Shown here: positions 22,123-45,792 of the stretch, piece by piece | Layout: each line of letters starts with the position of its first letter | How positions within the stretch are numbered: position 1 is the stretch's first letter | Assembly: GCA_964345375.1 (NCBI GenBank) | Contig: CAYFQP010000034.1 | Location: 65-64,064, forward strand | DNA: 64,000 nucleotides | DNA from: an uncultured Gammaproteobacteria bacterium | Lineage (GTDB): Bacteria; Patescibacteriota; Microgenomatia; CAYFQP01 | Direction of reading: 5' to 3' | The notes under the pieces: model-generated | Told to the model about the DNA's origin: nothing | Database searches by the model: none | The model's input: the letters and a program-made list of their open reading frames with translations, nothing else | Program-made: the position numbers and the translations under genes

Positions 22123-22886
22123 GTAAACGTCAAAAATTTATTCTTTCCTCAGTCAGCCTTTCGGCCGGGTTAATGCTCATTCAAATGGCTGGTTTCCAAT
22201 GGCGTTATTCAGCCATTGCTCTTCTTTCTTTATTAGCCGCTGGTTTTACTCTTTGGTCTTTGAGAGAGGCCTTAGCCGGAGTTCGCTATCTAACAACAAT
22301 TATCTTACCGGCTCTTTTTACGGCTGGAGTAGGCCTTTTCTATTTTCTTTTACCAAGCACCTGGTTAGCTGTTTTACCAATTGCCTTGCTTTATGGTTTT
22401 GGTTTTTATGCTCTTTTATTAACTGAAAATATTTTTTCAGTCTCCGCAATTAGAACAATTCAGCTTTTCCGGGCGGCTCAAGCAGTCGGTTTTCTTTTAA
22501 CTTTATTGACTGCCTTTTTTCTCTTTGATACGGTTTATTCCTTTAAGTTCTATCCTTGGATTAATGCTTTTTTTGTCTTTATTATTGCCTTACCTCTTTA
22601 TTTTCAAGGATTATGGAGTATTGAGCTTGAAGAAAAAATTAGTCGTCGGTCAGTTGTTTTTTCTCTGGTTTTAGCCTTAGTTTCAGCTGAATTAGCCCTC
22701 ATAATTTCTTTCATGCCTTTAACCATTGCCATGAGTTCTTTGTTTTTAACAACAACAGTCTATGTTGGTCTTGGTCTTTCTCAGGCCCATTTTCAAGCTC
22801 GACTCTTTCGGAGAACGATTTATGAATATTTGGCTGTCGGCGCAATTGTTCTGCTGGTGATGATCTTAACTGTTAATTGGGGATAG
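22119..22886 (+). CDS. hypothetical polytopic membrane protein
   Basis: 255 aa, about 7 hydrophobic segments; ATGA overlap with yebC. Confidence 0.5.
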   Translation: MSKRQKFILSSVSLSAGLMLIQMAGFQWRYSAIALLSLLAAGFTLWSLREALAGVRYLTTIILPALFTAGVGLFYFLLPSTWLAVLPIALLYGFGFYALLLTENIFSVSAIRTIQLFRAAQAVGFLLTLLTAFFLFDTVYSFKFYPWINAFFVFIIALPLYFQGLWSIELEEKISRRSVVFSLVLALVSAELALIISFMPLTIAMSSLFLTTTVYVGLGLSQAHFQARLFRRTIYEYLAVGAIVLLVMILTVNWG

Positions 22887-24084: not shown

Positions 24085-25023
24085 ATGCCCAAAACAACTT
24101 CTTTGTCAGAATTAAATCAACAATTTCTTGAATATTTAGAGATTGAACGCAATTGTTCTCCCTTGACGATCAGAAATTACAAACATTATCTCGATCGCTT
24201 TCTGAACTTTGCCTCCCCTACTCCAGAAAAACTATCTCCAAAAAATATTAATTTAGAGTTGATTAGAAAGTATCGTCTCTTTCTTTCAAGATATTCAGAC
24301 GATAAAGGGAAAACCCTTTCTCGAAAAACCCAGGCCTATCATGTTGTTGCTCTTCGTTCTTTTCTTCGTTGGCTAGTAAAGAATGATTACGAAACTTTAG
24401 CTCCAGAAAAAATTGATTTACCCAAACAAGAAACTCACTCTTTAAAATTCCTTAATGCTGAACAGATAGAAAGATTGCTTTCTCAACCAAATGTTTCTAA
24501 ACCTTTGGGATTAAGAAATAAGGCAATTTTGGAAGTTTTATTTTCAACTGGTTTGCGAGTTTCAGAGCTAGTGAATCTTAATCGTGATCAAATAAATCTT
24601 TCTCGGAGAGAGTTTGGGGTTATCGGCAAGGGTGGTCGGTCAAGAGTGGTTTTTCTTTCTGAAAGAGCAGTTAGATGGTTAAAACGATATCTTGATTCTC
24701 GCGATGACCAATACAAACCCTTGTTTATCAGAATCGCTGGTTCAGTTGACCCAACCACCCCAGGAGAAAAAATGCGATTGTCAGCCCGCTCAATTCAAAG
24801 GATTGTTGAAAAATATGCCAAAAAGGCAAAATTGCCAATTAAAATCACTCCTCATGGTCTCCGCCACACTTTTGCCACTGATTTATTAATGGCTGGAGCT
24901 GATATCCGAAGTGTTCAAGAACTCTTAGGTCATAAAAACATCCAAACTACTCAAGTCTATACCCATGTGACTGATAAAAAATTACGTGAAGTCCACGAAA
25001 AATATCACGGTAAGGGAAAATAA
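24085..25023 (+). CDS. tyrosine site-specific recombinase, XerC/XerD-like
   Basis: N-terminal SAM-like core-binding domain; catalytic region GLRVSEL, HGLRHTFATDLLMAGADIRSVQELLGHKNIQTTQVYTHV (R..HxxR..Y). Confidence 0.8.
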   Translation: MPKTTSLSELNQQFLEYLEIERNCSPLTIRNYKHYLDRFLNFASPTPEKLSPKNINLELIRKYRLFLSRYSDDKGKTLSRKTQAYHVVALRSFLRWLVKNDYETLAPEKIDLPKQETHSLKFLNAEQIERLLSQPNVSKPLGLRNKAILEVLFSTGLRVSELVNLNRDQINLSRREFGVIGKGGRSRVVFLSERAVRWLKRYLDSRDDQYKPLFIRIAGSVDPTTPGEKMRLSARSIQRIVEKYAKKAKLPIKITPHGLRHTFATDLLMAGADIRSVQELLGHKNIQTTQVYTHVTDKKLREVHEKYHGKGK

Positions 25024-31847: not shown

Positions 31848-33611
31848 ATGGCTGCCCAGACTGCCCAGGCTACTCAAGTTACCCAGGCTGGTAACACTCC
31901 GGCTAAAAACCTGGCTGATATCCTTGTTAAACAAGGAGCTCTTAAGGCTGATCAGGCCGAAAAAGTGAAACTTGAGAATATTAATACTGGTAAGCCGGTT
32001 GAGGAAATTGTTGCTAAGGATAAACTTGTTTCTGAAGAGGCTTTAATTAAGGCCAAGGCTGAATTCTACAACGTTTCTTTTGTTAACTTAATGGAAACCC
32101 CCTCTTCTCCCGAAGCCTTGGCTTTGATCCCAAAATCAGTGGCTGAGGCGAATAATCTCATTCCCTTTGCTCTTGATAAGAAAAAGAATGAACTTTCGGT
32201 TGCCCTGGTTAATCCTCTTGATTTGGAAATCATTGAGTTTATTGAAAAGAAATCCGGGGCCAAAATCAAACCCTTCATGGCTTCTCCCAGTCAGATTAAG
32301 GCGGCCATTGCCGAGCGCTACGGAGTTGGTTTAACGACCGAGGTGACAGCGGCCTTAAAAGAAGCGGTTCCCGAAGTGACGCCAACGAAGACGGTGGATA
32401 TCAAAAAATTGGGTGAGGTTATTCGGGAGGCACCAATTGCCAAGATTGTTTCTACTTTGCTTGAGTTTGCCATGCGGAGTCGAGCTTCGGATATTCACAT
32501 CGAGCCAGAAGAGGGTAAAACCCGAGTCAGGTATCGGATTGATGGCATTATGCACGAGAAATTAATTCTGCCTAAAACAGTCCACGAAGCCCTTGTTTCT
32601 CGGATTAAGATTCTTTCAGGAATGAAGATTGATGAAAAACGGTTACCTCAAGACGGCCGTTTTAATTTCCGGGCTGATGGTGATGAGGTCGATTTGCGGG
32701 TCTCTTGTTTGCCAACGGTTCATGGCGAGAAAATGGTCATGAGGCTCTTGAAAAAAACCGGTGGTGTGCCTGATTTGCCTGAGCTAGGTTTAAGAGGTCG
32801 GGCCTTAAAGCAGGTTGAAGAAGCGATTACCAAACCAGTAGGTATTATCCTTGTTTGTGGACCAACTGGTTCTGGAAAAACAACGACTCTTTATTCAATC
32901 ATTCAGCGAATTAATTCTACCCGAGTCAACATTATCACTCTTGAGGATCCAGTCGAATATCAAATTGCTGGCGTTAATCAGGTTCAGGTTAATCCCAAAG
33001 CCGGTTTGACTTTTGCTTCTGGTCTGCGGTCTTTTGTTCGTCAAGATCCAGACATTATTCTTGTGGGTGAAATTCGGGATAAAGAAACAACCGAACTGGC
33101 AATTCAGGCCTCTCTGACTGGCCATTTAGTTTTCTCGACTCTTCACACTAATTCAGCGGCTGGCGCTCTTCCCCGTTTACTAGATTTAGGAGCTGAACCC
33201 TTCTTATTAGCTTCCTCAGCCTCAGCCATTCTTGGTCAGCGAGTTTGTCGCCGGGTTTGCCCTTATTGTCGCCAAGAATTCGAGCCTTCAGAACAGCTAG
33301 TGGCTGATATCAAGAAGGTTTTAGGCCAGTTATTTGATGAAAAAAAATATGGTCCAGGTTTTAAAATGGTCAAAGGTAAAGGCTGTCAGGAGTGTAATAG
33401 CTCTGGTTATCTAGGTCGGGTGGGAATTTTTGAAGTCCTACCAGTAACCGAAAAAATCGGCCGTTTGATTTTAGAAAGTACCCCCGCTAGCAAAGTCGAA
33501 CAGCAAGCGGTTGAAGAAGGAATGGTTACGATGAAACAGGATGGATATTTGAAATCTTTGGAGGGAATTACTACTATAGAAGAAGTCCTTCGGGTTGCCG
33601 AAGTAAGTTAA
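31848..33611 (+). CDS. pilB: type IV pilus assembly / T2SS ATPase PilB/GspE
   Basis: N-terminal GSPII_E_N domain, Walker A VCGPTGSGKTTTLY, Asp/His boxes, tetracysteine CPYC...CQECNSSGY. Confidence 0.9.
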   Translation: MAAQTAQATQVTQAGNTPAKNLADILVKQGALKADQAEKVKLENINTGKPVEEIVAKDKLVSEEALIKAKAEFYNVSFVNLMETPSSPEALALIPKSVAEANNLIPFALDKKKNELSVALVNPLDLEIIEFIEKKSGAKIKPFMASPSQIKAAIAERYGVGLTTEVTAALKEAVPEVTPTKTVDIKKLGEVIREAPIAKIVSTLLEFAMRSRASDIHIEPEEGKTRVRYRIDGIMHEKLILPKTVHEALVSRIKILSGMKIDEKRLPQDGRFNFRADGDEVDLRVSCLPTVHGEKMVMRLLKKTGGVPDLPELGLRGRALKQVEEAITKPVGIILVCGPTGSGKTTTLYSIIQRINSTRVNIITLEDPVEYQIAGVNQVQVNPKAGLTFASGLRSFVRQDPDIILVGEIRDKETTELAIQASLTGHLVFSTLHTNSAAGALPRLLDLGAEPFLLASSASAILGQRVCRRVCPYCRQEFEPSEQLVADIKKVLGQLFDEKKYGPGFKMVKGKGCQECNSSGYLGRVGIFEVLPVTEKIGRLILESTPASKVEQQAVEEGMVTMKQDGYLKSLEGITTIEEVLRVAEVS

Positions 33612-33617
33612 AAACAA

Positions 33618-34676
33618 ATGGAAATTAGAGAATTACTGAAAATTACTTTAGACCGCAACGCCTCTGACCTCCACCTCTTGGTGGGCATTCCTCCGGCCCT
33701 GAGAATTGATGGAGTTTTGACTTTATTAACTGATTATCCTGCCCTGAATCAAAATATGATTCAGGAATTGGTTAATTCTCTTCTCAATCAGGAACAAAAA
33801 GAAATTCTTAATGTTAATCGGGAATTAGATTTCTCTTTTGAATTAGAAGGTCAGGCTCGTTTCCGGGTTAATGCTTACCACCAGAGGGGCACTTTGGCGG
33901 TTGCCCTTCGGTTGATTCCTTTAAAGATAAGGAATATCGAAGAATTAAAATTACCTCAGATCTGCCATCGCTTTGCTGAACTGAAACAAGGCTTTATTCT
34001 CATCACTGGTCCGACTGGGCACGGTAAGTCAACCACCTTGGCGGCCATCTTAAATGAGATTAACACCAAACGAGCTGAGCACATTGTCACGATTGAAGAT
34101 CCGATTGAATTCATTCTTCCTCAAAGCAAGTCAATTGTTTCCCAAAGAGAAATTCATGCTGACACCCATTCTTGGGAAATTTCTCTTCGGTCTTGTTTAC
34201 GAGAAGATCCGAACGTAGTTCTCGTTGGTGAGATGAGGGATTATGAAACCATTGCTGCCGCCTTAACGATTGCTGAAACCGGCCATTTGGTTTTTGCCAC
34301 CCTCCATACCAACTCTGCTGCCCAGACAATTGACCGAATTGTTGATGTTTTTCCTGAACACTCCAAAAGTCAAGTAAGAATGCAGCTCGCTTTTACGATT
34401 GAGGCCGTCTTTTCTCAGCGGTTGATTCCTTGTTTAAAAGGCGGTAGGGTAGTGGCGACCGAGGTAATGGTTGCCACTCCAGCCATTCGGACTTCTGTTC
34501 GAGAGGGCAAGACCCACATGATTGATAACATCATCCAAACTTCAAGAGAATTGAGCATGTGGACGCTAGAGACCGACCTAGCCCGGTTAGTCAAAGAGGG
34601 AGAAGTGAGCTTAGAGACAGCCAAGGCCTATGCTCTTCGCCCAGAAGATCTTATCAGACAGGTTAGGGGCAAGTGA
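33618..34676 (+). CDS. pilT: twitching motility retraction ATPase PilT
   Basis: ITGPTGHGKSTTLAAIL Walker A, IVTIEDPIEF, LVGEMRD, ATLHTNSAAQTIDRI. Confidence 0.9.
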   Translation: MEIRELLKITLDRNASDLHLLVGIPPALRIDGVLTLLTDYPALNQNMIQELVNSLLNQEQKEILNVNRELDFSFELEGQARFRVNAYHQRGTLAVALRLIPLKIRNIEELKLPQICHRFAELKQGFILITGPTGHGKSTTLAAILNEINTKRAEHIVTIEDPIEFILPQSKSIVSQREIHADTHSWEISLRSCLREDPNVVLVGEMRDYETIAAALTIAETGHLVFATLHTNSAAQTIDRIVDVFPEHSKSQVRMQLAFTIEAVFSQRLIPCLKGGRVVATEVMVATPAIRTSVREGKTHMIDNIIQTSRELSMWTLETDLARLVKEGEVSLETAKAYALRPEDLIRQVRGK

Positions 34677-35878
34677 GAAAATTTAACTATAAAGCCAAAG
34701 ATAAACAAGGAAAGACCGTTAAAGGCGTGGTTGAGGCCGCTGGTGAGAAGCAAGCGGCTAAAGTTCTTCGAGATAAAGGTTTGGTTCCAATCTCCTTGAG
34801 TTTTTCTAAGAGAGATATTTTTAAGGTTATCTCTGAACGGTATTTTCAACGAATTGGTTTGGCTGAGCTCGCCACTTTCACCCGTCAGCTTTCAACCATG
34901 GTGACTGCTGGTTTGACCGTGGCTGATGCCCTCCGGATTCTTAAAGAGCAATCTTCACCTAAGTTTGGCCATGTGATTGATGATGTTCTCAGATCAGTTG
35001 AGGGTGGTGCCACCTTGGCTGAGTCATTGGAGAACCACCCTCGAGTTTTTGGTGAAGTCTATATCGCCCTGGTTCGTTCAGGAGAAGCGGCTGGTGTTTT
35101 GGATGAAGTTTTATCAAGATTGGCTGAGAATTTAGAAAAAGAACGAGAATTTCGGAATAAAGTTAAGGGAGCAATGATCTATCCAGTGGTGATTATTGTT
35201 GGGATGGTCGCCGTAGGCGGGATTATGATGGTTTTTGTCATCCCTAAGCTTTTAGGACTCTACCAAGAATTTGAGGCCGAGTTACCCATGGCGACTAAAA
35301 TCCTGATTACCATTTCTAATTTAGCCACTCGTTTCTGGTGGATCACTCTTTTAATTATTGTGGTGGCTGTTTTTTCCTTAAGAAACTTTCAAAAAACACC
35401 AGTCGGCAAGAAAAAGATTGATCGGTTAAAAATTCAGTTACCCGTGGTTGGCGGCTTGATAAAAATGTCCATCATGGCGGAAATGACCAGAACCTTGGGT
35501 CTCTTAGTTGGCACTGGCATCTCGATTATCGACGCCTTAACAATTGTTTCTCGGGCCGTAGGCAACTCGGTTTATGAAGAAGAGCTCCAAGTGGCGGCTG
35601 ACAGAGTTGAAAAAGGTTTGCCTTTAGGTGGAACCTTAGCTGAATACGAGGACTTTCCTCCAGTTGTTCCCCACATGGTTTCAGTGGGCGAAGAAACCGG
35701 CAAGCTAGATGAAGTTCTGACCAAACTCTCTCAATATTTTGAGTCAGAATCAGAGCAGATGGTTAAAGGCTTGACAACCCTCATCGAGCCCCTTATCATG
35801 GTAGTCTTAGGACTAGGAGTTGGTTTTTTGATTATTGCTGTAATTTTACCAATTTATAATTTGACGACATCATTTTAA
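34673..35878 (+). CDS. pilC: type IV pilus / T2SS platform protein PilC/GspF
   Basis: Two GspF repeats with a 3-TM topology; typical length of 401 aa. Confidence 0.85.
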   Translation: MRKFNYKAKDKQGKTVKGVVEAAGEKQAAKVLRDKGLVPISLSFSKRDIFKVISERYFQRIGLAELATFTRQLSTMVTAGLTVADALRILKEQSSPKFGHVIDDVLRSVEGGATLAESLENHPRVFGEVYIALVRSGEAAGVLDEVLSRLAENLEKEREFRNKVKGAMIYPVVIIVGMVAVGGIMMVFVIPKLLGLYQEFEAELPMATKILITISNLATRFWWITLLIIVVAVFSLRNFQKTPVGKKKIDRLKIQLPVVGGLIKMSIMAEMTRTLGLLVGTGISIIDALTIVSRAVGNSVYEEELQVAADRVEKGLPLGGTLAEYEDFPPVVPHMVSVGEETGKLDEVLTKLSQYFESESEQMVKGLTTLIEPLIMVVLGLGVGFLIIAVILPIYNLTTSF

Positions 35879-35901
35879 GAGAAAGGGGGTGAAAAAAAGA
35901 G

Positions 35902-36543
35902 ATGAAGACTGCCCGTTTTTTAATGGCAAAAGGTTTTACCTTGGTTGAGCTTTTGATTGTTATTGCTCTAATTGGGATCTTGGCGGTGGCTATTTTGGCG
36001 GCCATTAACCCCTTAGAGCAGCTTAATCGAGCCCGGGACACAGGGATGGAATCAGACGCCTCTCAGCTTTTGGCAGCGATTGACCGATATTACGCTGCTC
36101 ATGAAGAGTTCCCTTGGACAACAGTCAGTGAGGATGATGCGGTTATGACTGACATCAGTGGAGAGGATACAATTGGATTTATTTCCGCCCAAGATCCTCT
36201 GATCGGAGTTTGTGATACTACTGGATGTGGAGATCAAGGCGTTCTCCTTGTTAACCTTGAGCTAAAATCAGAGTTTTTGAGGAGGAATTTTATTCTTGCT
36301 ACCCAGCCGGTTGACATGCTCTACTTAGGCAAAGATGAAGGCGCTTCTAGCTCGGTTTACGCTTGTTGGGTGCCTCGGTCTTTAGCTAAGAGACAAAGCT
36401 CATCCGTAAGTCTTACAGGCACTGAAGGAACCGAACCTTATGGACTAGACGACAATGTTTGTGATCCCAACGCAACAGGCACTGACTTTACTGATGTTAC
36501 AAAAGCCTGTTTGTATTGTGTTCCTGGTGCTCCAGTTTGGTAA
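35902..36543 (+). CDS. type IV pilin (prepilin with class III signal; candidate major pilin)
   Basis: MKTARFLMAKG|FTLVELLIVIALIGILAVA with Glu+5; located between pilC and pilD; C-terminal Cys pairs. Confidence 0.75.
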   Translation: MKTARFLMAKGFTLVELLIVIALIGILAVAILAAINPLEQLNRARDTGMESDASQLLAAIDRYYAAHEEFPWTTVSEDDAVMTDISGEDTIGFISAQDPLIGVCDTTGCGDQGVLLVNLELKSEFLRRNFILATQPVDMLYLGKDEGASSSVYACWVPRSLAKRQSSSVSLTGTEGTEPYGLDDNVCDPNATGTDFTDVTKACLYCVPGAPVW

Positions 36544-36643
36544 GGCGAGATTTTTTTGATAACAACTAGGCAGTTATCATTTGGGGAGTTGAAGTGTAAA
36601 GATGAGTTAATAGTCGAAAAATTGGTGGGGAAATATTAGTGAA

Positions 36644-37432
36644 GTGGCTTTATTTTTTTTTCTTTTTATTTTCGGCTTGGGTTTGAGCATTGGCTCATTC
36701 TTAAATGTCCTCATTTATCGCCTACCCCGGTCGATTCCATTAACAGGTCGTTCTTTCTGTCCTAGGTGTAAAAAAAAGATTTCTTGGCAAGATAATTTTC
36801 CTTTATTGTCTTTCATCTTTTTAAGAGGAAAGTGTCGTCATTGCCACTCCCCTATTTCCTGGCAATATCCAGTGGTAGAGTTTTTAACCGCCTTTCTTTT
36901 TTTCTTAACTGCTTTCTGGGTCTTTAAGCAAAACCCTGATTTAACCTTGTTAACCCCCCAATATTACTTAATCCTTGGCTACTACCTTTTTCTTTTTTCA
37001 GCCTTAGTGGTAATTTTTTTCACTGATTTATTCCAACAAATTATTCCTGATCAAGTTGTCTATCCGGCAATGGTAATCAGCCTAATAGGTGGCTTTTTCC
37101 TTGATGGAATTCAAAGATATAATCTTCTCTCAGCCCTAGGAGGAGGTCTTTTCTTTCTCTTCCTCCATTTGATTACTAAGAAGAAAGGAATGGGTTCGGG
37201 TGATATAAAATTAGTTGTCTTAATGGGATTGATTCTTGGTTTTCCTAAGATTGTCCTTGCTTCATACTTAGCTTTCTTGACAGGTGCTCTGGTAGGTGTC
37301 ATACTGATTTTAGCAAAAAAAAAGAAGTTTGGGGAGCATATTCCCTTTGGCCCGTTTCTAGCTGGGTCAACGATTATTGCCCTTTTTTGGGGTGAAGAAT
37401 TAATTAAATGGCTGACTGCCCGCTTATTTTAA
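36644..37432 (+). CDS. pilD: prepilin peptidase PilD (A24 family)
   Basis: CPRCKKKI...CRHCHSPI zinc finger, 8 TM, catalytic Asp regions (TDLFQQIIPD; GMGSGDIKL). Confidence 0.85.
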   Translation: MALFFFLFIFGLGLSIGSFLNVLIYRLPRSIPLTGRSFCPRCKKKISWQDNFPLLSFIFLRGKCRHCHSPISWQYPVVEFLTAFLFFLTAFWVFKQNPDLTLLTPQYYLILGYYLFLFSALVVIFFTDLFQQIIPDQVVYPAMVISLIGGFFLDGIQRYNLLSALGGGLFFLFLHLITKKKGMGSGDIKLVVLMGLILGFPKIVLASYLAFLTGALVGVILILAKKKKFGEHIPFGPFLAGSTIIALFWGEELIKWLTARLF

Positions 37433-38046
37433 AAAGGAAAAAACCTCAAGGAATCTCCCTGACTGAATTATTAATCGTTGTCGCCGTTATTGCTGTTCTA
37501 ATCCTGGCTCTGATTGCTGCTTTTAAACCTTGGACCCAGCAAGCTAAAGCCCGCGATGCTCAGCGAAAAGCTGATCTTCAGAAGATTAAGGCTCCCCTTG
37601 AAGATTATTATAATGATAATAATTGCTACCCCTATCCAACTCTTGATGATTTGGTTCCCGATTATATTGGTGAGAAACCAACCGATCCGGAAACAGGCGA
37701 AGATTATATTTATATTCCAGACCCAAATTGCAATTTCTACCAGATTTATACTAGACTAGAATATATCAATGATCCAGAGATTATCGAGGTCGGTTGTGGA
37801 GCTGGTTGCGGGCCAGGAGGAGATGATGGCACTTGTGAATATAATTATGGGATTTCGGGTGGTGGAGAGAGCCTAGAATGTTGCACGGCACCTGAAGACA
37901 TCTGTCCGTTTGGTGGAAGACCCTGGGTGGCCCCGCCTGATTGTGAAAACCCAGGCGACTATTGTGGGAAACCGACCTGTTGTTATCAAAACTGGGTTAT
38001 GGTTTGTGACGGAGAGGAATATTGGTGTTGTCAACCTGAAGAATAA
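37408..38046 (+). CDS. pilin-like protein with Cys-rich C-terminal domain
   Basis: KRKKPQG|ISLTELLIVVAVIAVL prepilin N-terminus; ARDAQRKADLQKIKAPLEDYY GspG-like helix; 14 Cys in the last ~85 aa. Confidence 0.65.
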   Translation: MADCPLILKRKKPQGISLTELLIVVAVIAVLILALIAAFKPWTQQAKARDAQRKADLQKIKAPLEDYYNDNNCYPYPTLDDLVPDYIGEKPTDPETGEDYIYIPDPNCNFYQIYTRLEYINDPEIIEVGCGAGCGPGGDDGTCEYNYGISGGGESLECCTAPEDICPFGGRPWVAPPDCENPGDYCGKPTCCYQNWVMVCDGEEYWCCQPEE

Positions 38047-38048
38047 TA

Positions 38049-38579
38049 ATGAAATTAAAAAAGCTTAAAGTTAAAAACCAAAAACACGGTTTTACTTTAG
38101 TTGAACTGTTGGTAGTGATGGCCATTCTCGCCATTTTGGCGACTGTCACTTTAGCCAATTTCCGAACTTCTCAAATTAAAGCCCGCGATGCCCAGAGAAA
38201 ACATGATTTACGCCAGATTGTTAATGCTTTAGAGGCCTATTTTAGTGATCATAATGGCTATCCAGAGGCCAGTAATGGAAAAATCATGGCTTGTGGTTGT
38301 CAAGATCCAGGACTGGCTTGTGGTTGGGATGATCCTGTTGGTCAACGAGAGTTTTGTGATGGTAATAACACTGTTTACATGGCTAAAGTTCCTGGTGACC
38401 CTCTTTCGGATCCTAATCACTCCTATTGCTATCAATCTGATGGAAATTACTTTAAACTTTATGCTATTCTAGAAAATGAGAAAGACCCAGAAGCAACGAT
38501 TGAGGTCACCTGTGCTGGTAAAGACTATAATTTTGGCCTTGCCAGCCCGAACGTGCCTTTAGTTGAGGAGGAAGAATGA
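38049..38579 (+). CDS. pilin-like protein (GspG/PulG-like pseudopilin)
   Basis: KHG|FTLVELLVVMAILAILA, KARDAQRKHDLRQIVNALEAYFSDHNGYP. Confidence 0.7.
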   Translation: MKLKKLKVKNQKHGFTLVELLVVMAILAILATVTLANFRTSQIKARDAQRKHDLRQIVNALEAYFSDHNGYPEASNGKIMACGCQDPGLACGWDDPVGQREFCDGNNTVYMAKVPGDPLSDPNHSYCYQSDGNYFKLYAILENEKDPEATIEVTCAGKDYNFGLASPNVPLVEEEE

Positions 38580-38668
38580 AAAAACTGATTAATAACTTTG
38601 GTTTTACCCTGATTGAACTCTTGGTCGTCATCTCGATTATTGGCATTTTAGCCACCCTCTTGATTGCT
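38576..38668 (+). repeat. 93-nt segment identical to 39068-39160 (first 31 codons of two adjacent pilin genes)
   Basis: Direct comparison of the sequence: 93/93 identity starting exactly at each ATG, with divergence immediately afterwards. Confidence 0.85.
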
Positions 38669-39064
38669 AATCTTGGTGGGATAAGGGAAAGGGCCCGAGA
38701 TGCTCAGAGAAAGAATGATCTCAATCAGATTCAGAAAGCGTTAGAGATGTATAAAAATAGTCAGGACCCGCCTACTTATCCAGCTGATGGAATTGACAGC
38801 CTAATGGATACCTTAAAAGCTAAAAACTTTGTCCAAGATGAATTGCATGACCCAAAATGTACTTATAATTCTGATGACGATCTTTGGGAATGTACTGGCG
38901 ATTGGCCTGATTATAGTTATGATTTAGATCCAGAAGACATGGGTGATGATTTGACTTACGAACTAGTTGTTTGCCTAGAGAATCCCTCTGACCCCCAGGC
39001 AGATAGCAGTCTCCATTCTGATTGTTCTGGAGCAGGAGGTAGTATTTCCAGGAGGGAACCCTAA
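38576..39064 (+). CDS. pilin-like protein (paralog A)
   Basis: MKKLINNFG|FTLIELLVVISIIGILATLLIA; ERARDAQRKNDLNQIQKALEMY. Confidence 0.7.
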   Translation: MKKLINNFGFTLIELLVVISIIGILATLLIANLGGIRERARDAQRKNDLNQIQKALEMYKNSQDPPTYPADGIDSLMDTLKAKNFVQDELHDPKCTYNSDDDLWECTGDWPDYSYDLDPEDMGDDLTYELVVCLENPSDPQADSSLHSDCSGAGGSISRREP

Positions 39065-39067
39065 AAG

Positions 39068-39160
39068 ATGAAAAAACTGATTAATAACTTTGGTTTTACC
39101 CTGATTGAACTCTTGGTCGTCATCTCGATTATTGGCATTTTAGCCACCCTCTTGATTGCT
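39068..39160 (+). repeat. second copy of the 93-nt pilin N-terminal repeat
   Basis: Identical to 38576-38668. Confidence 0.85.
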
Positions 39161-39565
39161 CGTTATGGGATGGCTGAAAAAAGTGCTCGAGACACAGAGA
39201 GAAAATCTGATTTGAATCAATACCGGATTGGCCTTGAGAATTTTGCTTCTCAGACAGGTGGTCTTTACCCTGCCCGGCCTTCTCGGGGTGATGCTTCAGA
39301 CGGAGAGCCTTGCGATGCACTTACCAGTGATGATTATCTTTCTCAGTGTCCTCAAGATCCCCGCCAGGAAGAGGATGAAACGACTTACCTTTACCTTTAT
39401 CATTCAAATGGGACTGCAGGTGAAAGTGACGCCACTAATTATATTCTCTGGGCGAGATTAGAAACAGGGACTCAACCTCATCATCATTGGTATGTTTGTG
39501 CTGATGGCCGGGCTGGTGAGAAACAGGGGCCGGCACCAAGTTTAGCCGATGATTGCGGTGGCTAA
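39068..39565 (+). CDS. pilin-like protein (paralog B)
   Basis: Identical N-terminal 31 aa to the preceding gene, then a divergent C-terminus (SARDTERKSDLNQYRIGLENF...). Confidence 0.7.
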   Translation: MKKLINNFGFTLIELLVVISIIGILATLLIARYGMAEKSARDTERKSDLNQYRIGLENFASQTGGLYPARPSRGDASDGEPCDALTSDDYLSQCPQDPRQEEDETTYLYLYHSNGTAGESDATNYILWARLETGTQPHHHWYVCADGRAGEKQGPAPSLADDCGG

Positions 39566-40004
39566 AATGAGGAAAAAGATTGCTGGTTTTACTTTAATTG
39601 AGTTATTGGTAGTAATTACTATCATTGGTATCCTAATGGGTATTCTCTTAGTCGCCTATCAAGGCACAAGGGTGACAGCTCGAGACGGCAAAAGAAAAGC
39701 GGATTTAGAACAAATCCGAGCCGCTCTTCAACTCTATCATGCTGATTGTGGTGTCTATCCAAGTTCTCCCAATTTTGGTGGTAGTTTAACCTCCACAAAG
39801 CCTCCTTGTCCCGATTCTTCAACTAAATATATGAGTAAAGTTCCCCAGGATCCCCTCTACCCTACTTATGAATACAGTTATGTTCCAGGAGCAACTGGTC
39901 ATACCTATACTCTTTGTGCCTATCTTGAGAAAGGCTCTGGCAGTGTTTCTGGTTGTGGCAGCTGTGGTGATTCATCTTGTAATTATCAAACAACCCAACC
40001 CTAG
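39549..40004 (+). CDS. pilin-like protein
   Basis: KIAG|FTLIELLVVITIIGILMGILL; ARDGKRKADLEQIRAALQLY. Confidence 0.7.
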   Translation: MIAVAKMRKKIAGFTLIELLVVITIIGILMGILLVAYQGTRVTARDGKRKADLEQIRAALQLYHADCGVYPSSPNFGGSLTSTKPPCPDSSTKYMSKVPQDPLYPTYEYSYVPGATGHTYTLCAYLEKGSGSVSGCGSCGDSSCNYQTTQP

Positions 40005-40013
40005 AATTAAATA

Positions 40014-41063
40014 ATGATCAATGAGAAGGATCTTCAAAAGAAAAAAGGCTTTACCCTGATTGAGCTTCTGGTTGCCCTCTCCATTATTGGGATGATCTTT
40101 ACTTTTGGTTTTGCTTATTATCAGGATTTTAATCGTCGCCAAGTAGTTAATCAAGCAGCCAAAGAATTAAAAAATAATCTTCGTCTTGCCCAGAGCAAGG
40201 CTTTAGCCGGCGAAAAACCAGAAGGCTGTCAAGGCCAGTTGGAGGGTTATCTAGTCGAATTTGGTTTAAATGAATACATAATTTCAGCCAAATGTAGTCT
40301 CAGTGGAAAGGTTGATTCTAGTTCGATTGTCTATCCCCTAGTCTCTGGAGTTCAGATTGTTAACTCTCCTGGAACAATTGTTTTTAATGTTTTAAGTCTA
40401 GGAGTTAGCGAGCCTGGGGTGATTACTCTCAGTGGAACGAATTACTCGAACGAGGTTGAAGTTAAAGAAGGCGGCGAAATTTCTATTGATGACAGTGTTC
40501 CCTATACGTCTATGCCAACGCCTACTCCTTCACCTTCACCTGCTCCGACACCCACTTGTGTTGAAGAGGGTGATGTTAAGATAGTCTATCCAGGAATGCC
40601 GGACTGTTGCCCAGGGCTCAACCCAATCGGTAATTACACCATAAATAAGGCCGGTCAATGTCAACCCCTTTTGGGAGGAGAAGTCTGTGCTTATTGCCCC
40701 AATGGAGTTTGTGGTCTAGGAGAAGATTATTGTAATTGCCCTGAAGATTGTGGTACCTTGCCAACACCCACTCCATCGTGTGTACCTGAGGGAGGGACTA
40801 AATTAACCTCTCCAGGGGCGCCAGATTGTTGTCCCGGCCTGGCTCTTTTGGTTAATTATACCATTGATGAGGAAGGGGTTTGTCACCCTCTTTATGGCGG
40901 TGGAGTTTGTGCTTATTGCCCTGATGATCAATGCGGTCTAGGAGAAGATTATTGTAATTGCCCTGAAGATTGTTGTGCCGACCGATTTGAGAGTTGTGAT
41001 GTTAAACCCTGCTGTAGTCCCTTTACTTGTCAACAGTTTTTGTTTACTGAGAGATGTTTCTAG
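40014..41063 (+). CDS. minor pilin-like protein with two tandem ~74-aa Cys-rich repeats and PT linkers
   Basis: KKKG|FTLIELLVALSIIGMIF; PTPTPSPSPAPTPT linker; repeats with 10 Cys each (CCPGL...NYTI...C.PL.GG.VCAYCP..CGLGEDYCNCPEDC). Confidence 0.7.
   Translation: MINEKDLQKKKGFTLIELLVALSIIGMIFTFGFAYYQDFNRRQVVNQAAKELKNNLRLAQSKALAGEKPEGCQGQLEGYLVEFGLNEYIISAKCSLSGKVDSSSIVYPLVSGVQIVNSPGTIVFNVLSLGVSEPGVITLSGTNYSNEVEVKEGGEISIDDSVPYTSMPTPTPSPSPAPTPTCVEEGDVKIVYPGMPDCCPGLNPIGNYTINKAGQCQPLLGGEVCAYCPNGVCGLGEDYCNCPEDCGTLPTPTPSCVPEGGTKLTSPGAPDCCPGLALLVNYTIDEEGVCHPLYGGGVCAYCPDDQCGLGEDYCNCPEDCCADRFESCDVKPCCSPFTCQQFLFTERCF
40545..40980 (+). repeat. tandem coding repeat (~222 nt x2) encoding the Cys-rich module; includes a 39-nt identical core at 40713-40751 and 40935-40973
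   Basis: GGTCTAGGAGAAGATTATTGTAATTGCCCTGAAGATTGT occurs twice; the flanking TGTGCTTATTGCCC also occurs twice. Confidence 0.75.
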
Positions 41064-41095
41064 GGAAAGAGAGCCAACCAGCTTTTTTGATTATC

Positions 41096-41593
41096 ATGGA
41101 TGAGAGGAGACGAGGAAAAATAAAAAGACTGACTGGCTTCACCCTCATCGAGCTTTTAATCGTGATTTCGATTATGGGACTGTTTTTGACAGCAGGTTTG
41201 GTTTACTACCAAGACTTTAATCGCCGTCAGATTCTTGGCCAGGCAACTAAGGAATTAGAAAATAATCTTCGTCTTGCCCAGAGTAAGGCTTTAGCCGGCG
41301 AAAAACCAGAAGGTTGGTGTAAGGGTGAAAATGACTCGCTGGTTGGTTGTTCCCTGGAGTTTACTTCAGCTAATAATTATCAAGTTAAAGCAATTTGTTC
41401 TAATCCGGGAGTTGAGCCATTTGAGTTCACCTCAATCGATTTACCCGAGCAATTATCAGGATCAAGTGGTCAAAAAGCTTTGTTTAAGGTTCTTGGCCAA
41501 GGAGTAGCAGAAAAGACGACTTTTAATCTCTCAGGCTATGGAATGGAGAAAGAGGTTATTGTTGAAGAAGCAGGCAATATTTATATAAAATAA
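41096..41593 (+). CDS. pilin-like protein (N-terminal paralog of the 40014 gene)
   Basis: MDERRRGKIKRLTG|FTLIELLIVISIMGLF; shares YYQDFNRRQ...ELxNNLRLAQSKALAGEKPEG with the preceding gene. Confidence 0.65.
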   Translation: MDERRRGKIKRLTGFTLIELLIVISIMGLFLTAGLVYYQDFNRRQILGQATKELENNLRLAQSKALAGEKPEGWCKGENDSLVGCSLEFTSANNYQVKAICSNPGVEPFEFTSIDLPEQLSGSSGQKALFKVLGQGVAEKTTFNLSGYGMEKEVIVEEAGNIYIK

Positions 41594-41633
41594 TCTTTAG
41601 AGGAAATATTTTTATTCAAAGATATTCAAAAAA

Positions 41634-42086
41634 ATGATTAATTTAAGAAAAGAAAAAGGTCAAACCCTTCTTGAAGTTTTGGTTGCCTTAGCCGTGGTTG
41701 TTCTGGTGATTGTGGCTCTGATTAAAGCAACAACCTATTCCCTTAAAGGGAGCGACTTCTCTAAGACTCAGGCCTTAGCCACCAGATATGCTCAGGAAGC
41801 AATTGAGTGGACCAGGGCGGAAAGAGACAAGAGTTGGGATAATCTGGCTGATAGGTCGAGTGCAGATGGCAGCACTTATTGTTTGACCTCTCTCAGTTGG
41901 CCTGGAGCTGGTGGTTGTAGCGAGTCAGGTTTTTTAGAGGCTGACAATCGGTTTAAAAGAGAGGTCGTTCTTAAGAATGTTGGTGGCGAAGGAAATAGAA
42001 TCGAGGTTAGGGTTGAGGTTAGTTGGCAGGACGCTAGTGGCGAGCATCACTCTCGTTTAGAAACTTATTTATCAAATTGGCGATGA
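41634..42086 (+). CDS. pilin-like protein (GspI/PilV-like)
   Basis: KG|QTLLEVLVALAVVVLVIVALI prepilin-type N-terminus. Confidence 0.55.
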   Translation: MINLRKEKGQTLLEVLVALAVVVLVIVALIKATTYSLKGSDFSKTQALATRYAQEAIEWTRAERDKSWDNLADRSSADGSTYCLTSLSWPGAGGCSESGFLEADNRFKREVVLKNVGGEGNRIEVRVEVSWQDASGEHHSRLETYLSNWR

Positions 42087-42604
42087 AGAAAAAGAGTTTG
42101 GGATTCACCTTAATCGAAACCTTAGTAGTCATTTTCCTGATTGGGATTGTTTTAGTGGCTGGGGGGAATATCTTTTTTGGCATCATGAAGGGAGCCAGCA
42201 AGGCAGAAGTAGAAAGAGAAGTTAAACAGAACGGAGACTACGCTTTGGCAATTATGGAGAGAATGATTAGAAATTCGAGAGGAGTAGTTGTCTGTGATGA
42301 AGACCAAGATGAGTTGACGATTACCAACTTAGATTTTTACCAGACCACTTTTGAGCGAGTCCCGGACTCTGACCTAGGCATCAACCGGGTCGCTTCCTCG
42401 GGTGCCTATTTAACTGGTGAGAATGTTGACGTTCTTTCTTTAAACTTCGATTGTATTTATGAACCAGAAACAAGCTCGGATGAAAAAGACATCAGGCGAG
42501 TGGAGATTAACTTCTCTTTAATTCCCAGAGGAGGAGAAAAGGAAGTACCAGAGACCTACACGATCATTGACTTCAAGACGAGTATTAGTCTGAGGAATTT
42601 TTAG
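42077..42604 (+). CDS. pilin-like protein (GspJ/PilW-like)
   Basis: KSLG|FTLIETLVVIFLIGIVLVAGG. Confidence 0.6.
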   Translation: MAMKKKSLGFTLIETLVVIFLIGIVLVAGGNIFFGIMKGASKAEVEREVKQNGDYALAIMERMIRNSRGVVVCDEDQDELTITNLDFYQTTFERVPDSDLGINRVASSGAYLTGENVDVLSLNFDCIYEPETSSDEKDIRRVEINFSLIPRGGEKEVPETYTIIDFKTSISLRNF

Positions 42605-42642
42605 ATTTGACAATCAATTCTTGAATAGGTAAACTGAAATCA

Positions 42643-43530
42643 ATGATAAAACTGCCTCTTCGTCGTTTTTCTCCTCAGTTAAAGAAAGCAAGGGATTTAC
42701 CCCAAGGACAGGCTCTCCTGGTGATTCTTCTGGTTATGGCGGTTGGTTTGACCATTGGTTTAGCCGTGACCTCAAGGACAGTGACCGACATTGAGATTTC
42801 CGAGAAAACTGAAGAGGCCGCCCGAGCCTTCTCAGCGGCCGAGGCTGGCGTGGAAGAGGCTTTGGTCACAGCCGGGTTTGGAGAACTTCCTTCTGGTGAA
42901 TTTGAAGGAGGCGTCAGTTATACGACCAGGAAGGACCCCCTTGGAGAAGAAAAGACTTATCTTTTTCCTTCAGTGGAAAATAATGAAACAAAAACTCTTT
43001 GGCTAGCTGAATATCCAGATACAGAAAGTTATGCTGAAGACAGTTTAATTTTGTATTGGGGAGATTTTGATTCTTCTGAAAATCCTAGTTTAGAAGTTAT
43101 TGTTTATTATCTAGATGGAGGTAATTATAAAACTTGGCGTTATGCTCTCAACCCGATTGATAGAGGTGATGGTTTTTGTCAACCAGATCTAGCGGGAGAT
43201 ACCTGCGATAAAGTTCTCGATTTTGACCAGTTTGGCCCTCATTCAATTGGCAGCCAAGAAGCAAGTTATAAAGCAACCATTGAGTTGCCAGGAGGGCCTA
43301 ATGTTGTTCTCCTTTTTGCCAGATTGAGACTTTTGTATTCAGACGAATCCCAAGTTCTAGGTGCTGAAGCTGTTGGCGATAGCATTATCCTCCCCTCTCA
43401 AGGAGTCAAAATCACTTCAACAGGCACAGCCGGAGCTTCAACCAGAAAAGTCGAAGTAATTCGAGAGCACCCTGCTCCTTCAGAAATTTTTGACTTTTTG
43501 CTTTACTCAGGAACCGATTTAGAGAAATGA
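42643..43530 (+). CDS. GspK/PilX-like minor pseudopilin (large, no Glu+5)
   Basis: LPQGQALLVILLVMAVGLTIGLAV hydrophobic N-terminus resembling GspK; 295 aa. Confidence 0.45.
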   Translation: MIKLPLRRFSPQLKKARDLPQGQALLVILLVMAVGLTIGLAVTSRTVTDIEISEKTEEAARAFSAAEAGVEEALVTAGFGELPSGEFEGGVSYTTRKDPLGEEKTYLFPSVENNETKTLWLAEYPDTESYAEDSLILYWGDFDSSENPSLEVIVYYLDGGNYKTWRYALNPIDRGDGFCQPDLAGDTCDKVLDFDQFGPHSIGSQEASYKATIELPGGPNVVLLFARLRLLYSDESQVLGAEAVGDSIILPSQGVKITSTGTAGASTRKVEVIREHPAPSEIFDFLLYSGTDLEK

Positions 43531-44546
43531 ACGTCTTTGGCTTAGACATTGGCTCGACCTCTATTAAGATTGCCCAGGCTCAGAAAGAGGGTAACAAATT
43601 TCGTCTTTATTCGGCTGGCTTGGTCCAATCGCCTTCACCTGGGATTAACTCTGAAGCGAAAAAGGATTTGGTTGCCTTAGCGACGGCGATTAAAAAACTT
43701 CATCAAGACACAAAGATTAATAACCGGAGCGCGGTTGTCTCTTTGCCTGAAAGCAAAATTTTCTCTCGGGTGATTAGCTTGCCAGTTATGAGCGAGGATG
43801 AACTTTCTCAATCTCTTCAATGGGAGGCAGAACAATTTGTTCCTATGCCAATTGAAGACATTAGTCTCGACAGTGTTATTATCAGTCGGGGTCAACCAGG
43901 AAAAGTTGAGCAGAAGATGGAAGTTTTTGTTGTCGCTGCTCCCAATAATTTGATTAAGAAGTACCAGCAGGTGATTGAAATGGCTGGTTTTAAAATGGTG
44001 GCGATTGAAACCGAGCTTATTGCCGCTGCTCGAGCCTTAGTGGCTCCTGATTCGCCTCCTGTTTTAATCATTGATTTTGGCGCCGAGACAACAGACATTG
44101 CCATTGCTAAACAAGGCCGGGTGGTTTTCACTCGCTCAATTCCCGCTGCTGGCCAGGCTTTTACCCGGGCGATTTCTTCAGGTCTTTCAATCGACATTTC
44201 TCAAGCAGAAAAATACAAAACTGCTTATGGGTTAGAGGAAAAAAAGCTCGAAGGAAAAGTTAAAGAGGCCATTGCTCCAGTAGTAAATCAGGTTGTCAAT
44301 GAAGTCCGGAAAGCAATCCAATTCTGGCGAGAAAAAGAGAAAGAAGAGGTCAAATCACTTATTCTCACTGGCGGCTCGGCTAACCTTCCTAATCTGACTG
44401 CCTTTTTAACTCAATCATTAGGGATAGAGGTCCAAGTAGCTAACCCGTTTGCCCACTTAGTGGCTAACGAAAAACAGATTGCTCGTTTAAGTCAGAACAC
44501 TCCCCTCTTCGCTGTTGCCGTTGGTTTAGCCATGAAGGAGGTATAA
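43527..44546 (+). CDS. pilM: type IV pilus assembly protein PilM (actin-like ATPase fold)
   Basis: MNVFGLDIGSTSIKIAQ N-terminus, typical PilM length and motifs. Confidence 0.85.
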   Translation: MNVFGLDIGSTSIKIAQAQKEGNKFRLYSAGLVQSPSPGINSEAKKDLVALATAIKKLHQDTKINNRSAVVSLPESKIFSRVISLPVMSEDELSQSLQWEAEQFVPMPIEDISLDSVIISRGQPGKVEQKMEVFVVAAPNNLIKKYQQVIEMAGFKMVAIETELIAAARALVAPDSPPVLIIDFGAETTDIAIAKQGRVVFTRSIPAAGQAFTRAISSGLSIDISQAEKYKTAYGLEEKKLEGKVKEAIAPVVNQVVNEVRKAIQFWREKEKEEVKSLILTGGSANLPNLTAFLTQSLGIEVQVANPFAHLVANEKQIARLSQNTPLFAVAVGLAMKEV

Positions 44547-45083
44547 ATGCAATTTGGAATTAATCTTCTAGCCAGAGAAAAACCACCAACAGTTGTTGAA
44601 AAGCAAATAATCGGCAGACTAAAAAAAATTTCTCTTTTAGTCCTAGTGGTCTATGCTCTGGTAACTGGGATTCTTCTTGGCGGTGGTTATTATTTTTCTC
44701 TAGAAAGTAGAAATCTCTCTCGCCAGGCCAGTCAACTAGAAACGAGAATTAAATCTTTTCAAAAAGTGGAAACTTTAGAAGTCCTGATTAAAGACAGAAT
44801 TGTTAATAGTCAAAAAATCCTTGGCGCCCGGTCTCATCCTGAAGAGACTTTGACCAAAATCATTAATATAGTCGAGGAAGGAGTGAATATCTCAGAAATT
44901 GATTTTGGGGTCAAGGATAGACTAACTTTTAGCGTTGACACCCGTGACGTAACGAGCATGGAAATTTTTCTAGAAAAAATCAAAAAGGTTTTAGCCGAGT
45001 TAGGCTACCAAACTGTTAGGCTTGAGATGATTAGCCGTAATAAAAATGGCGGTTATTATTTTCAATTAATCGCTGAGAAGTAA
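44547..45083 (+). CDS. pilN: PilN-like bitopic membrane protein
   Basis: Short cytoplasmic N-terminus (binds PilM), single TM, coiled coil; immediately downstream of pilM. Confidence 0.6.
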   Translation: MQFGINLLAREKPPTVVEKQIIGRLKKISLLVLVVYALVTGILLGGGYYFSLESRNLSRQASQLETRIKSFQKVETLEVLIKDRIVNSQKILGARSHPEETLTKIINIVEEGVNISEIDFGVKDRLTFSVDTRDVTSMEIFLEKIKKVLAELGYQTVRLEMISRNKNGGYYFQLIAEK

Positions 45084-45084
45084 A

Positions 45085-45792
45085 ATGGCTGATTTAAAAA
45101 AAATCTTGTTTAAATATCATCAACTCTTTCTTCCTTTTATCTTTATCATCTCTTTGTTAATTTTTTGGTTTTTCCTGATGCCCAGGTTTAACCAGATAAA
45201 GAAAGTTTATTATTCAAATCAAAAAGAAAGAGAAAGGATTAGGAGCCTCCAAGTAAAAATCAGTGATTTAGAAACCCTTAATGAATACGAACTAACGGAA
45301 AAATCAGAGATTCTTCTTCTGGCTCTGCCCTCAGAGAAAAATGGGGTGGCGATGATGGGAGCGGTGAGCAATTTAGTTGAGGAGAATGGATTGGTAATCG
45401 AGTCAATTAGTGTTTCTCCTGGTGAGATAGCCACTGGCTCGGCTGAAGAATCGGCTGAAGAATCGGCCATGGATTTTTTACCTTTTAGATTAACGATTAC
45501 TGGTGAGATTACCCAATTTTTGAATTTTTTGGAAGCTGCTAGCCAGACTCTTCCGTTAATGGATGTAGAAATGAGGAATTTTGACATCACTGGTGAGCAG
45601 TCAACCTCTGATTGTTTAATTAAGTTTTATTATACTGGTTTACCGACAACGCTTGGAAAAATTGAGACGCCTGTGCCTAAACTATCTAGCCAAGAGGAAT
45701 TATTTCTTGATGAGCTCCAAAAGTTTAATGCCTATCAATTAGAACCGTTTGAGCCCAGTGTCGGCGGTCGAGCTAACCCCTTTACTTTTTAG
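45085..45792 (+). CDS. pilO: PilO-like bitopic membrane protein
   Basis: N-terminal TM plus coiled coil, then a periplasmic-type domain; position after pilN. Confidence 0.5.
   Translation: MADLKKILFKYHQLFLPFIFIISLLIFWFFLMPRFNQIKKVYYSNQKERERIRSLQVKISDLETLNEYELTEKSEILLLALPSEKNGVAMMGAVSNLVEENGLVIESISVSPGEIATGSAEESAEESAMDFLPFRLTITGEITQFLNFLEAASQTLPLMDVEMRNFDITGEQSTSDCLIKFYYTGLPTTLGKIETPVPKLSSQEELFLDELQKFNAYQLEPFEPSVGGRANPFTF

Follow-up and report, generated by a model that had tools for sequence, protein, structure and literature searches.

Within the DNA stretch analysed here, 64,000 nucleotides (nt) of contig CAYFQP010000034.1 that we refer to as the window, a type IV pilus operon contains a gene for a pilin of 349 amino acids (aa) with a long, cysteine-rich C-terminal extension. 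From its N- to its C-terminus, this protein (the target) consists of a class III (prepilin) leader, a pilin module, a linker rich in Pro, Thr and Ser, two 65-aa repeats with 10 Cys each (R1 and R2) that are joined by a second, Pro/Thr-rich (PT) linker, and a short tail with six further Cys (Table 1). The protein is the translation of an intact open reading frame (ORF), and an exact copy of it is on public record (P0035, encoded on an NCBI contig of 68.9 kb). An initial annotation of this DNA had described a 349-aa pilin-like protein with a PT linker, two 10-Cys repeats and a Cys-rich tail, and all of these elements were found on translation. That the region is instead a low-complexity stretch that is rich in Cys by chance, or a gene that is frameshifted or wrongly called, has a negligible probability. 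The ORF is intact and its prepilin signal canonical, the exact protein had already been recorded, homologous domains number in the hundreds at E ≤ 1e-10, the AlphaFold2 (AF2) model of the repeat unit has a predicted local distance difference test score (pLDDT) of 95.7, and the operon is syntenic in another genome, with an ortholog of the gene there. On these grounds an artefact was rejected, and no result favours it.

Table 1. Positions in the window of the target gene, its parts, the adjacent paralog and the operon.
Feature	Position	Strand	Evidence or remarks
Modular minor pilin gene, 349 aa	40014..41063	+	28 Cys: 2 in pilin module, 20 in repeats, 6 in tail
Class III (prepilin) leader MINEKDLQKKKG, aa 1-12, then FTLIE	40014..40049	+	PF07963 N_methyl aa 9-30, E = 7e-8; TIGR02532
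FimU/FimT/GspH-like pilin module, aa 13-163	40050..40502	+	Homologs, AF2, Foldseek
Pro/Thr/Ser-rich linker YTSMPTPTPSPSPAPTPT, aa 164-181	40503..40556	+	Sequence
Repeat R1, 65 aa, 10 Cys, aa 182-246	40557..40751	+	Alignment, AF2 model
Inter-repeat PT linker GTLPTPTPS, aa 247-255	40752..40778	+	Sequence
Repeat R2, 65 aa, 10 Cys, aa 256-320	40779..40973	+	Alignment
39-nt stretch, last 13 codons of R1 (GLGEDYCNCPEDC)	40713..40751	+	Identical to 40935-40973
Second copy of 39-nt stretch, last 13 codons of R2 (GLGEDYCNCPEDC)	40935..40973	+	Identical to 40713-40751
6-Cys tail CADRFESCDVKPCCSPFTCQQFLFTERCF, 29 aa, aa 321-349	40974..41060	+	Cys spacing knottin/ICK-like (ICK, inhibitor cystine knot)
FimU-like minor pilin paralog, 179 aa, P0176, without C-terminal module	41054..41593	+	Homology to the pilin module of the target
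Type IV pilus operon	31848..45792	+	Pfam and NCBIfam scans

The class III signal reads KKKG/FTLIELLVALSIIG, i.e. a short charged leader that ends in Gly and is followed by a hydrophobic helix. Cleavage by the prepilin peptidase PilD is predicted after G12 (at the slash), which would leave F1 and E5 in the mature protein. PF07963 matches the target with 32.1 bits against a cut-off of 21.2 (E = 7e-8) and TIGR02532 with 31.2 bits against a cut-off of 16.3, in agreement with the earlier description as pilin-like. AF2 models were made separately for the pilin module alone and for R1 alone. The model of the pilin module (pLDDT 90.7) shows a long helix (residues 15-65) followed by eight strands that form two β-sheets. 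When this model was compared with the PDB by Foldseek, FimU of Pseudomonas aeruginosa (4ipu_C) was the top match, with a probability of 1.00, a target-normalised TM-score (TMt) of 0.62 and a root-mean-square deviation of 3.2 Å over 134 columns; the matches below it are noise, so that FimU is the sole credible match in the PDB. A homology search with aa 1-166 gave 87 proteins, almost all of them 150-185 aa long. Some are named as FimT family by their source, and precomputed PF12019 (GspH) matches exist for 7 of the 87. The module also carries a Cys pair, C72/C94, that is conserved in the family. Since a profile of the pilin module run against PDB sequences matched the generic N-terminal pilin helix and nothing more, the FimU assignment rests on the fold. 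Membership in the GspH/FimT/FimU family is thus indicated by the modelled fold and by gene position, not by the thresholds of sequence models.

The operon begins with PilB, PilT, PilC, a pilin, PilD and five GspG-like pilins, followed by the target, and continues with the FimU-like paralog, a PilV/GspI-like pilin, another pilin, a 295-aa protein, PilM, a PilN-like protein and a GspM/PilO-like protein. The target therefore shares its operon with the prepilin peptidase PilD (A24_N_bact and Peptidase_A24 domains; 36644-37432) as well as with PilB, PilT, PilC and PilM. Together with its paralog, it precedes the GspI/PilV-like pilin, the further pilin, the 295-aa protein and PilM, i.e. it occupies the position expected from the H-I-J-K or fimU-pilVWX order, with the family matches of the genes of this minor-pilin block lying below threshold. 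The initial annotation had called the protein a minor pilin, and its FimU/GspH-type fold, as judged from the AF2 model and Foldseek, and its place within the minor-pilin block agree with that. The start of the paralog gene overlaps the 3' end of the target gene by 10 nt. Assembly GCA_015665585.1 (L001) contains a syntenic operon that includes an ortholog of the module-bearing gene. In a more distant related operon (L083), the last GspG-like pilin gene adjoins a plain FimU-like gene, which is the sole FimU-like gene there. Because that operon does without a module-bearing gene, the target gene is an accessory paralog.

Two further observations concern the operon itself. The 295-aa protein (42643-43530, + strand) has an N-terminal hydrophobic segment, gave no Pfam or NCBIfam match and stands in the GspK/PilX position before PilM; it may be a large tip subunit of the pilus. 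In L001, a Y1-type (IS200-like) transposase gene (3743-4420, - strand) lies between the first pilin gene and PilD, and it is absent from the window.

The 65-aa repeat unit, referred to below as the module, could not be assigned to any described domain. The C-terminal 168 aa of the target gave no match in Pfam, NCBIfam or PDB sequences at E ≤ 1, and the module and its multi-copy carriers matched no Pfam or NCBIfam family at E ≤ 1, EGF, Kazal, DUF4215/TIGR02232 and MopE included. A profile of the module run against PDB sequences returned nothing at E ≤ 10, and a literature search for a description of the 65-aa module yielded nothing relevant. The initial annotation had not recognised the module either and had proposed a Foldseek search with it; this was carried out with the AF2 model of R1, against the PDB and BFVD, and gave no match. 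An explanation by a known domain was ruled out by the empty sequence and profile searches of Pfam, NCBIfam and the PDB.

A module family was then defined by an alignment of 21 units (A1), which served as a profile against 1.84 billion cluster representatives at the 50% identity level. This search yielded 2,065 representatives at E ≤ 1e-3 and 537 at E ≤ 1e-10. R1 and R2 score 88.6 and 81.4 bits, respectively, against the hidden Markov model of the family, with all 10 Cys present. The initial homology search had returned 17 proteins, among which P0001 and P0002, from the same clade as the target, are the only pilins. The other relatives include small signal-peptide proteins, a Kazal-domain protein, tandem two-copy proteins and an Altiarchaeota protein whose C-terminus resembles an archaeal anchor. 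Of the profile matches, the best 150 of the 2,065 were fetched. Carriers are up to 2,236 aa long and contain up to eight full-length tandem copies (up to nine matched stretches) per protein, and 3 of the 162 fetched carriers are pilins, namely P0035 (the target), P0001 and P0002.

In a scan of one genome per species, the module was found at 274 loci or more, in both bacteria and archaea. The counts at the level of loci refer to the best 80 of these at least 274 loci, which comprise 85 module-bearing ORFs. According to their record titles, 26 of the 80 loci are archaeal (DPANN groups, Altiarchaeota and Methanosarcinales), 25 belong to Myxococcota or 'Deltaproteobacteria', 10 to the Candidate Phyla Radiation (CPR) and 7 to Gamma- or other Proteobacteria; the remaining 12 come from Chloroflexi, Omnitrophota, Spirochaetes, Planctomycetes, Thermodesulfobacteriota, Acidobacteria and unclassified genomes. 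The 85 ORFs begin with Sec or lipoprotein-type signals or with membrane anchors, and nearly all carriers of the module have a Sec or lipoprotein signal. When 88 carriers were scanned with Pfam, only their other parts were annotated (Kazal, dockerin, NosD/beta-helix, SLH, CARDB, PG-binding and comparable extracellular domains), and the module never. Judged from these sequences, the module is a promiscuous extracellular domain, widespread on secreted and surface proteins, for which the databases hold no description. The view of the module as an invention of pilins or of CPR bacteria had to be abandoned in the face of 2,065 representatives and at least 274 loci across bacteria and archaea.

As an isolated case, the membrane-anchored non-pilin module protein P0013 is encoded directly upstream of a type IV pilin gene on a metagenome contig (L084, 16-603 and 687-1250).

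The anatomy of the module was deduced from 398 unique full-length copies. The core Cys occupy profile positions 1, 17, 18, 35, 44, 47, 52, 59, 61 and 65, the residues G5, E56 and D64 are invariant, and the motifs CCxGL and CGDGxCGxGENxCNCPxDC are conserved. About a quarter of the copies have extra Cys at positions 26 and 38 (both in 86, neither in 287, only one in 25; phi 0.83), and C35 and C59 also co-vary (phi 0.73); the pilin copies are of the majority 10-Cys type. Such covariation is as expected of disulfide partners. Because Cys 26 and 38 are gained and lost together, a pairing by disulfides fits, whereas metal sites do not, and the pattern argues against the latter. We infer from this that the module is disulfide-bonded and that it consists of a β-hairpin subdomain stapled to a C-terminal mini-motif, CGDGxC-x3-E-x4-CPxDC, with C35-C59 probably forming the staple between the two. 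The last approximately 20 aa of the module (C47 to C65 without C59, hence four Cys) also exist as a stand-alone repeat. Arrays of this mini-motif occur in large surface proteins, with dozens of copies in P0126 and several each in P0154 and P0155, and gave no match in Pfam or NCBIfam.

A very improbable alternative is that the Cys bind a metal (Zn, Fe or Cu) instead of forming disulfides, and that the pilin displays a metal-binding or redox-active appendage. The module does contain CxxC, CxC and CC motifs, with Glu and Asp among its invariant residues, a putative metal-binding motif of the MopE type is present in one carrier as well, and the idea is conceivable inasmuch as most carriers come from anoxic habitats and many are anaerobes (CPR, DPANN, Altiarchaeota). 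However, the even number of Cys (10 or 12) and the pairing of the optional ones resemble disulfides rather than tetrahedral metal sites, the location of the module is extracellular, and no metal-binding family of Pfam or NCBIfam matches the module itself. Furthermore, CPR genomes are reported to be enriched in MdbA-like oxidoreductases, which are paired with VKOR for the formation of extracellular disulfides (bioRxiv 10.1101/335083).

The two repeats of the target follow each other with a period of 74 aa (222 nt), and their 65-aa cores, each with exactly 10 Cys, are aligned without gaps at 44 of 65 identical residues (68%; BLASTP E = 3e-30). At the DNA level R1 and R2 are 71% identical, with the final 39 nt (13 codons) being the same. 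Tandem Repeats Finder did not report the R1/R2 array, because the two units are too diverged, while a repeat search recovered the 39-nt core and a 14-codon internal sub-repeat (GGxVCAYCPxx versus GEDYCNCPED). From the 39-nt core, a recent duplication had been concluded in the initial annotation. The identity of the core is correct as described, but a recent duplication of the whole unit was ruled out by two findings. Codons for the same residue are identical at 13 of 13 positions inside the core as compared to 12 of 31 outside it (P about 4e-6, with codons assumed to be independent), and R1 is nearer to the single module of the relative P0001 (71%) than to R2 (68%). With codon identity confined to the core and R1 nearer to P0001, the pattern instead fits an older duplication that was followed by local gene conversion or homogenisation of the 3' end.

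The adjacent pilin genes at 38576-39064 and 39068-39565 (both + strand) share their first 93 nt (MKKLINNFGFTLIELLVVISIIGILATLLIA) and diverge afterwards. This is a second sign of local gene conversion, or of a recent partial duplication, in the operon.

The tail that follows R2 (CADRFESCDVKPCCSPFTCQQFLFTERC) has the Cys spacing C-x6-C-x4-CC-x4-C-x8-C. The consensus spacing of knottins (ICK proteins) is C-x(3-7)-C-x(3-8)-CC-x(1-4 or more)-C-x(4-13)-C, into which the tail falls. The searches of Pfam, NCBIfam and PDB sequences with the C-terminal 168 aa gave no match to known knottin families at E ≤ 1. The same Cys pattern recurs in P0165 (230 aa), and a variant of it in P0220 (218 aa). In these two members of the same pilin clade the tail directly follows a long PT linker, with no 65-aa module in between. 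P0001 and P0002 each have one module, followed in P0001 by a different Cys-rich tail and in P0002 by none, and most homologs of the pilin module are without any extension. The length of the PT linker varies widely as well, from 18 aa in the target to about 35 aa in P0001 and about 40 aa in P0165. This graded series of units and the varied linker lengths indicate domain shuffling on a tether, in which the clade would mix and match small disulfide-rich units at a FimU-like C-terminus.

A further Cys-rich pilin is encoded in the operon. The first pilin after PilD (37408-38046, + strand; 212 aa) has 16 Cys and a Cys-rich end with knottin-like spacing (CENPGDYCGKPTCCYQNWVMVCDGEEYWCC), and its ortholog in L001 (5267-5929) has a similar tail (CEQPRTYCPPPYQAACCSLTGMIYCSELEEWCC). 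Together with the target, more than one pilin of the operon would therefore carry a small disulfide-rich C-terminal unit.

The knottin-like spacing of the tail also bears on the question whether the protein polymerises at all. The prepilin N-terminus might serve for export or anchoring only, the protein being an unpolymerised surface protein or a released effector such as a protease inhibitor or a toxin-like knottin. Besides the spacing of the tail, the co-occurrence of the module with Kazal and Pacifastin inhibitor domains in other proteins speaks for this, as does the status of the gene as an extra paralog: it is succeeded by a plain FimU-like gene and is missing from L083, so that it should be dispensable for pilus assembly. 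We nevertheless judge this explanation to be clearly improbable. The target has kept a complete FimU-like globular fold that is confidently modelled, and not a signal alone. Its gene is located within the minor-pilin block, where the above-mentioned 10-nt overlap with the following gene suggests co-expression, and neither the module nor the tail gave a match to a known family of inhibitors or toxins.

The interpretation that we favour, with slightly better than even confidence and by analogy with characterised systems, is that the target is a modular type IV minor pilin, most likely carrying a disulfide-rich appendage for binding or adhesion. In this scenario, a Microgenomates lineage of the CPR would have grafted the 65-aa domain onto a duplicated FimU-like pilin. 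After cleavage of the leader by PilD, the N-terminal helix would insert into the pilus core and anchor the protein there, with the minor pilins priming assembly in line with the H-I-J-K order of the operon. The flexible Pro/Thr linker would then project the chain of R1, R2 and the tail, which would form a cap, outward at or near the pilus tip. In GspH/FimT-family pilins the C-terminus is solvent-exposed in the assembled pilus and tolerant of change (PMC8897410), and the chain should therefore project outward. Tethered in this manner, it could bind a ligand on a surface or host, as an appendage that is rigid and resists proteases. By analogy, a role as a tip adhesin is plausible.

A number of points weigh against this interpretation. 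With respect to the pilin module, the Foldseek E-value for FimU is modest (5e-3), the Pfam scan gave no PF12019 match for the target, and TIGR01708 reached 34.6 bits against a cut-off of 80, covering the N-terminal helix alone. As to where in the filament the target would sit, FimU of P. aeruginosa probably connects the tip complex with the shaft, and for this reason 'near the tip' is a safer description than 'at the tip'. No Dsb, MdbA or VKOR genes were found among the 30 other ORFs of the window that were scanned, a negative of little weight given that most of the genome lies outside the window. Finally, a prepilin motif is present in none of the 85 module-bearing ORFs of the best 80 loci, and a pilin gene lies within 3 kb at 1 of these 80 loci. 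Together with the 3 pilins among 162 carriers, these counts rule out a pilin-specific module; the initial annotation had itself named broad occurrence outside pilins as evidence against its proposal, and this is what was found. As the module is not preferentially associated with pilins or pilus loci, its generic role may be structural rather than adhesive.

A structural role is taken furthest by the possibility that the 65-aa modules are inert, rigid and protease-resistant spacers comparable to EGF-type stalks, with binding residing in the cap or in another component of the pilus. The tandem arrays of up to eight full-length copies (up to nine matched stretches) with short linkers in very different proteins would fit such spacers, and the conserved positions are almost all Cys, Gly or Pro, i.e. 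structural. Moreover, P0165 and P0220 have nothing but the cap after their linker, so that the cap seems to be a recurrent terminal element in the clade, and in the target the modules lie between linker and cap. On the other hand, P0002 ends in a module without a cap, and in 74 of the 162 proteins a module stands at the extreme C-terminus, which is atypical of a mere spacer. Many carriers are tiny and consist of a signal peptide, one module and an anchor (e.g. P0007 and P0009), so that the module must be the functional part there. The hairpin loops, furthermore, vary strongly while the scaffold stays fixed, as is the case in binding scaffolds. Overall, we regard the spacer function as unlikely, though as a serious competitor of the binding appendage.

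The phylogenetic origin that the initial annotation had assumed for this DNA, i.e. a CPR bacterium, was supported by GyrB. The closest named relatives of the GyrB encoded in the window are from Patescibacteria/Microgenomates (Shapirobacteria, Woesebacteria and Blackburnbacteria), with identities of 68-76%. Proteins matching DUF5656 and DUF5660 are encoded at 22119-22886 and 60782-61402; we take these to be mostly CPR families, which would agree with the taxonomic assignment. Elsewhere in the window, a XerC/D-like tyrosine recombinase is encoded at 24085-25023, and a 221-aa ORF (17095-17760, + strand) that overlaps the ORF at 16766-17224 has weak Hint/intein-splicing matches (E about 4e-6, under the Pfam cut-offs). 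In the GyrA gene (25865-28456, - strand), the DNA_topoisoIV domain is matched as two separate stretches, which may reflect an insertion within this domain.

As a generic extracellular domain and not an invention of the pilus tip, the module is less special than the initial annotation had suggested; exposed instead is a large unnamed domain family, which has at least 2,065 representatives at 50% identity across bacteria and archaea and lacks both a database entry and a structural relative. A definition of this family would improve the annotation of thousands of 'hypothetical' secreted proteins and supply surveys of modular pilins with a signature that they lack. Pilins rarely display the domain, and where they do so it may help in attachment. 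A more far-reaching and rather doubtful proposal combines two statements, namely that the 65-aa unit and its 20-aa core represent an undescribed ancient extracellular binding scaffold of CPR bacteria, DPANN and other archaea, and Myxococcota, and that in this Microgenomates lineage a duplicated FimU-type pilin bears the scaffold and a knottin-like cap, the whole forming a host-recognition appendage at the tip. If both were true, variation in module number, linker and cap would represent adaptation to host surfaces and provide a sequence-readable marker of host specificity in uncultivated episymbionts. Host recognition by CPR bacteria is largely unknown outside Saccharibacteria, where minor pilins with accessory domains have been implicated (PMC11623550), and the locus described here would be a different solution. 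No existing concept is overturned by the finding. The architecture is new in that mini disulfide domains, which stem from an undescribed but widespread domain, are tethered to a FimU-type pilin, and it extends a known design principle.

This principle is that of the modular pilins, an established class in which grafted modules mediate adhesion, as in PilB (vWA) and PilC (lectin) of Streptococcus sanguinis, CofB of enterotoxigenic Escherichia coli and TcpB of Vibrio cholerae (PMC8179133). Raynaud et al. (2021) expect many modular pilins whose modules are without signatures and list examples from the CPR (PMC8179133). Like the members of this class, the target is a minor pilin with an N-terminal pilin module, a linker and extra C-terminal modules; the 65-aa module folds independently according to its AF2 model (pLDDT 95.7) and is overwhelmingly non-pilin elsewhere. 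Unlike them, it carries not one bulky domain but a chain of tiny disulfide-rich units (65 + 65 + 29 aa) on long PT tethers. Two further differences are that neither Pfam nor NCBIfam has a signature for the module and that a FimU/GspH-type pilin serves as the carrier.

Saccharibacteria offer the nearest parallel within the CPR. Their minor pilin PilX2 has a C-terminal accessory domain and is required for efficient host binding (PMC11623550), and the target shares with PilX1 and PilX2 the setting of CPR type IV pili and large minor pilins with C-terminal accessory domains. In contrast, the accessory domains of the Saccharibacteria proteins are a β-jelly-roll (lectin-like) and a β-propeller on a PilX-type pilin, whereas the target, from a Microgenomates-like genome, is a FimU-type pilin with Cys-rich mini-domains. 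With P. aeruginosa FimU (4IPU) and Legionella pneumophila FimT the target shares the fold and the position at the head of the minor-pilin block. Known GspH/FimT/FimU members are about 150-170 aa long and have no extra domains, whereas in the target a further 186 aa of linker and Cys-rich units follow. FimT binds DNA through its exposed C-terminal end (PMC8897410); the GRxR DNA-binding tail of FimT is absent from the target.

The module itself can be compared with EGF-like, Kazal and knottin/ICK domains and with the Myxococcus repeat (TIGR02232/DUF4215), all of which are small multi-disulfide domains that secreted proteins carry in tandem. In its CGDG...E...C start, the mini-motif presumably resembles the Myxococcus cysteine-rich repeat. 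The 10-Cys pattern of the module differs from those of all of these, and with no sequence match at E ≤ 1 and no fold match in the PDB, the module stands apart from them.

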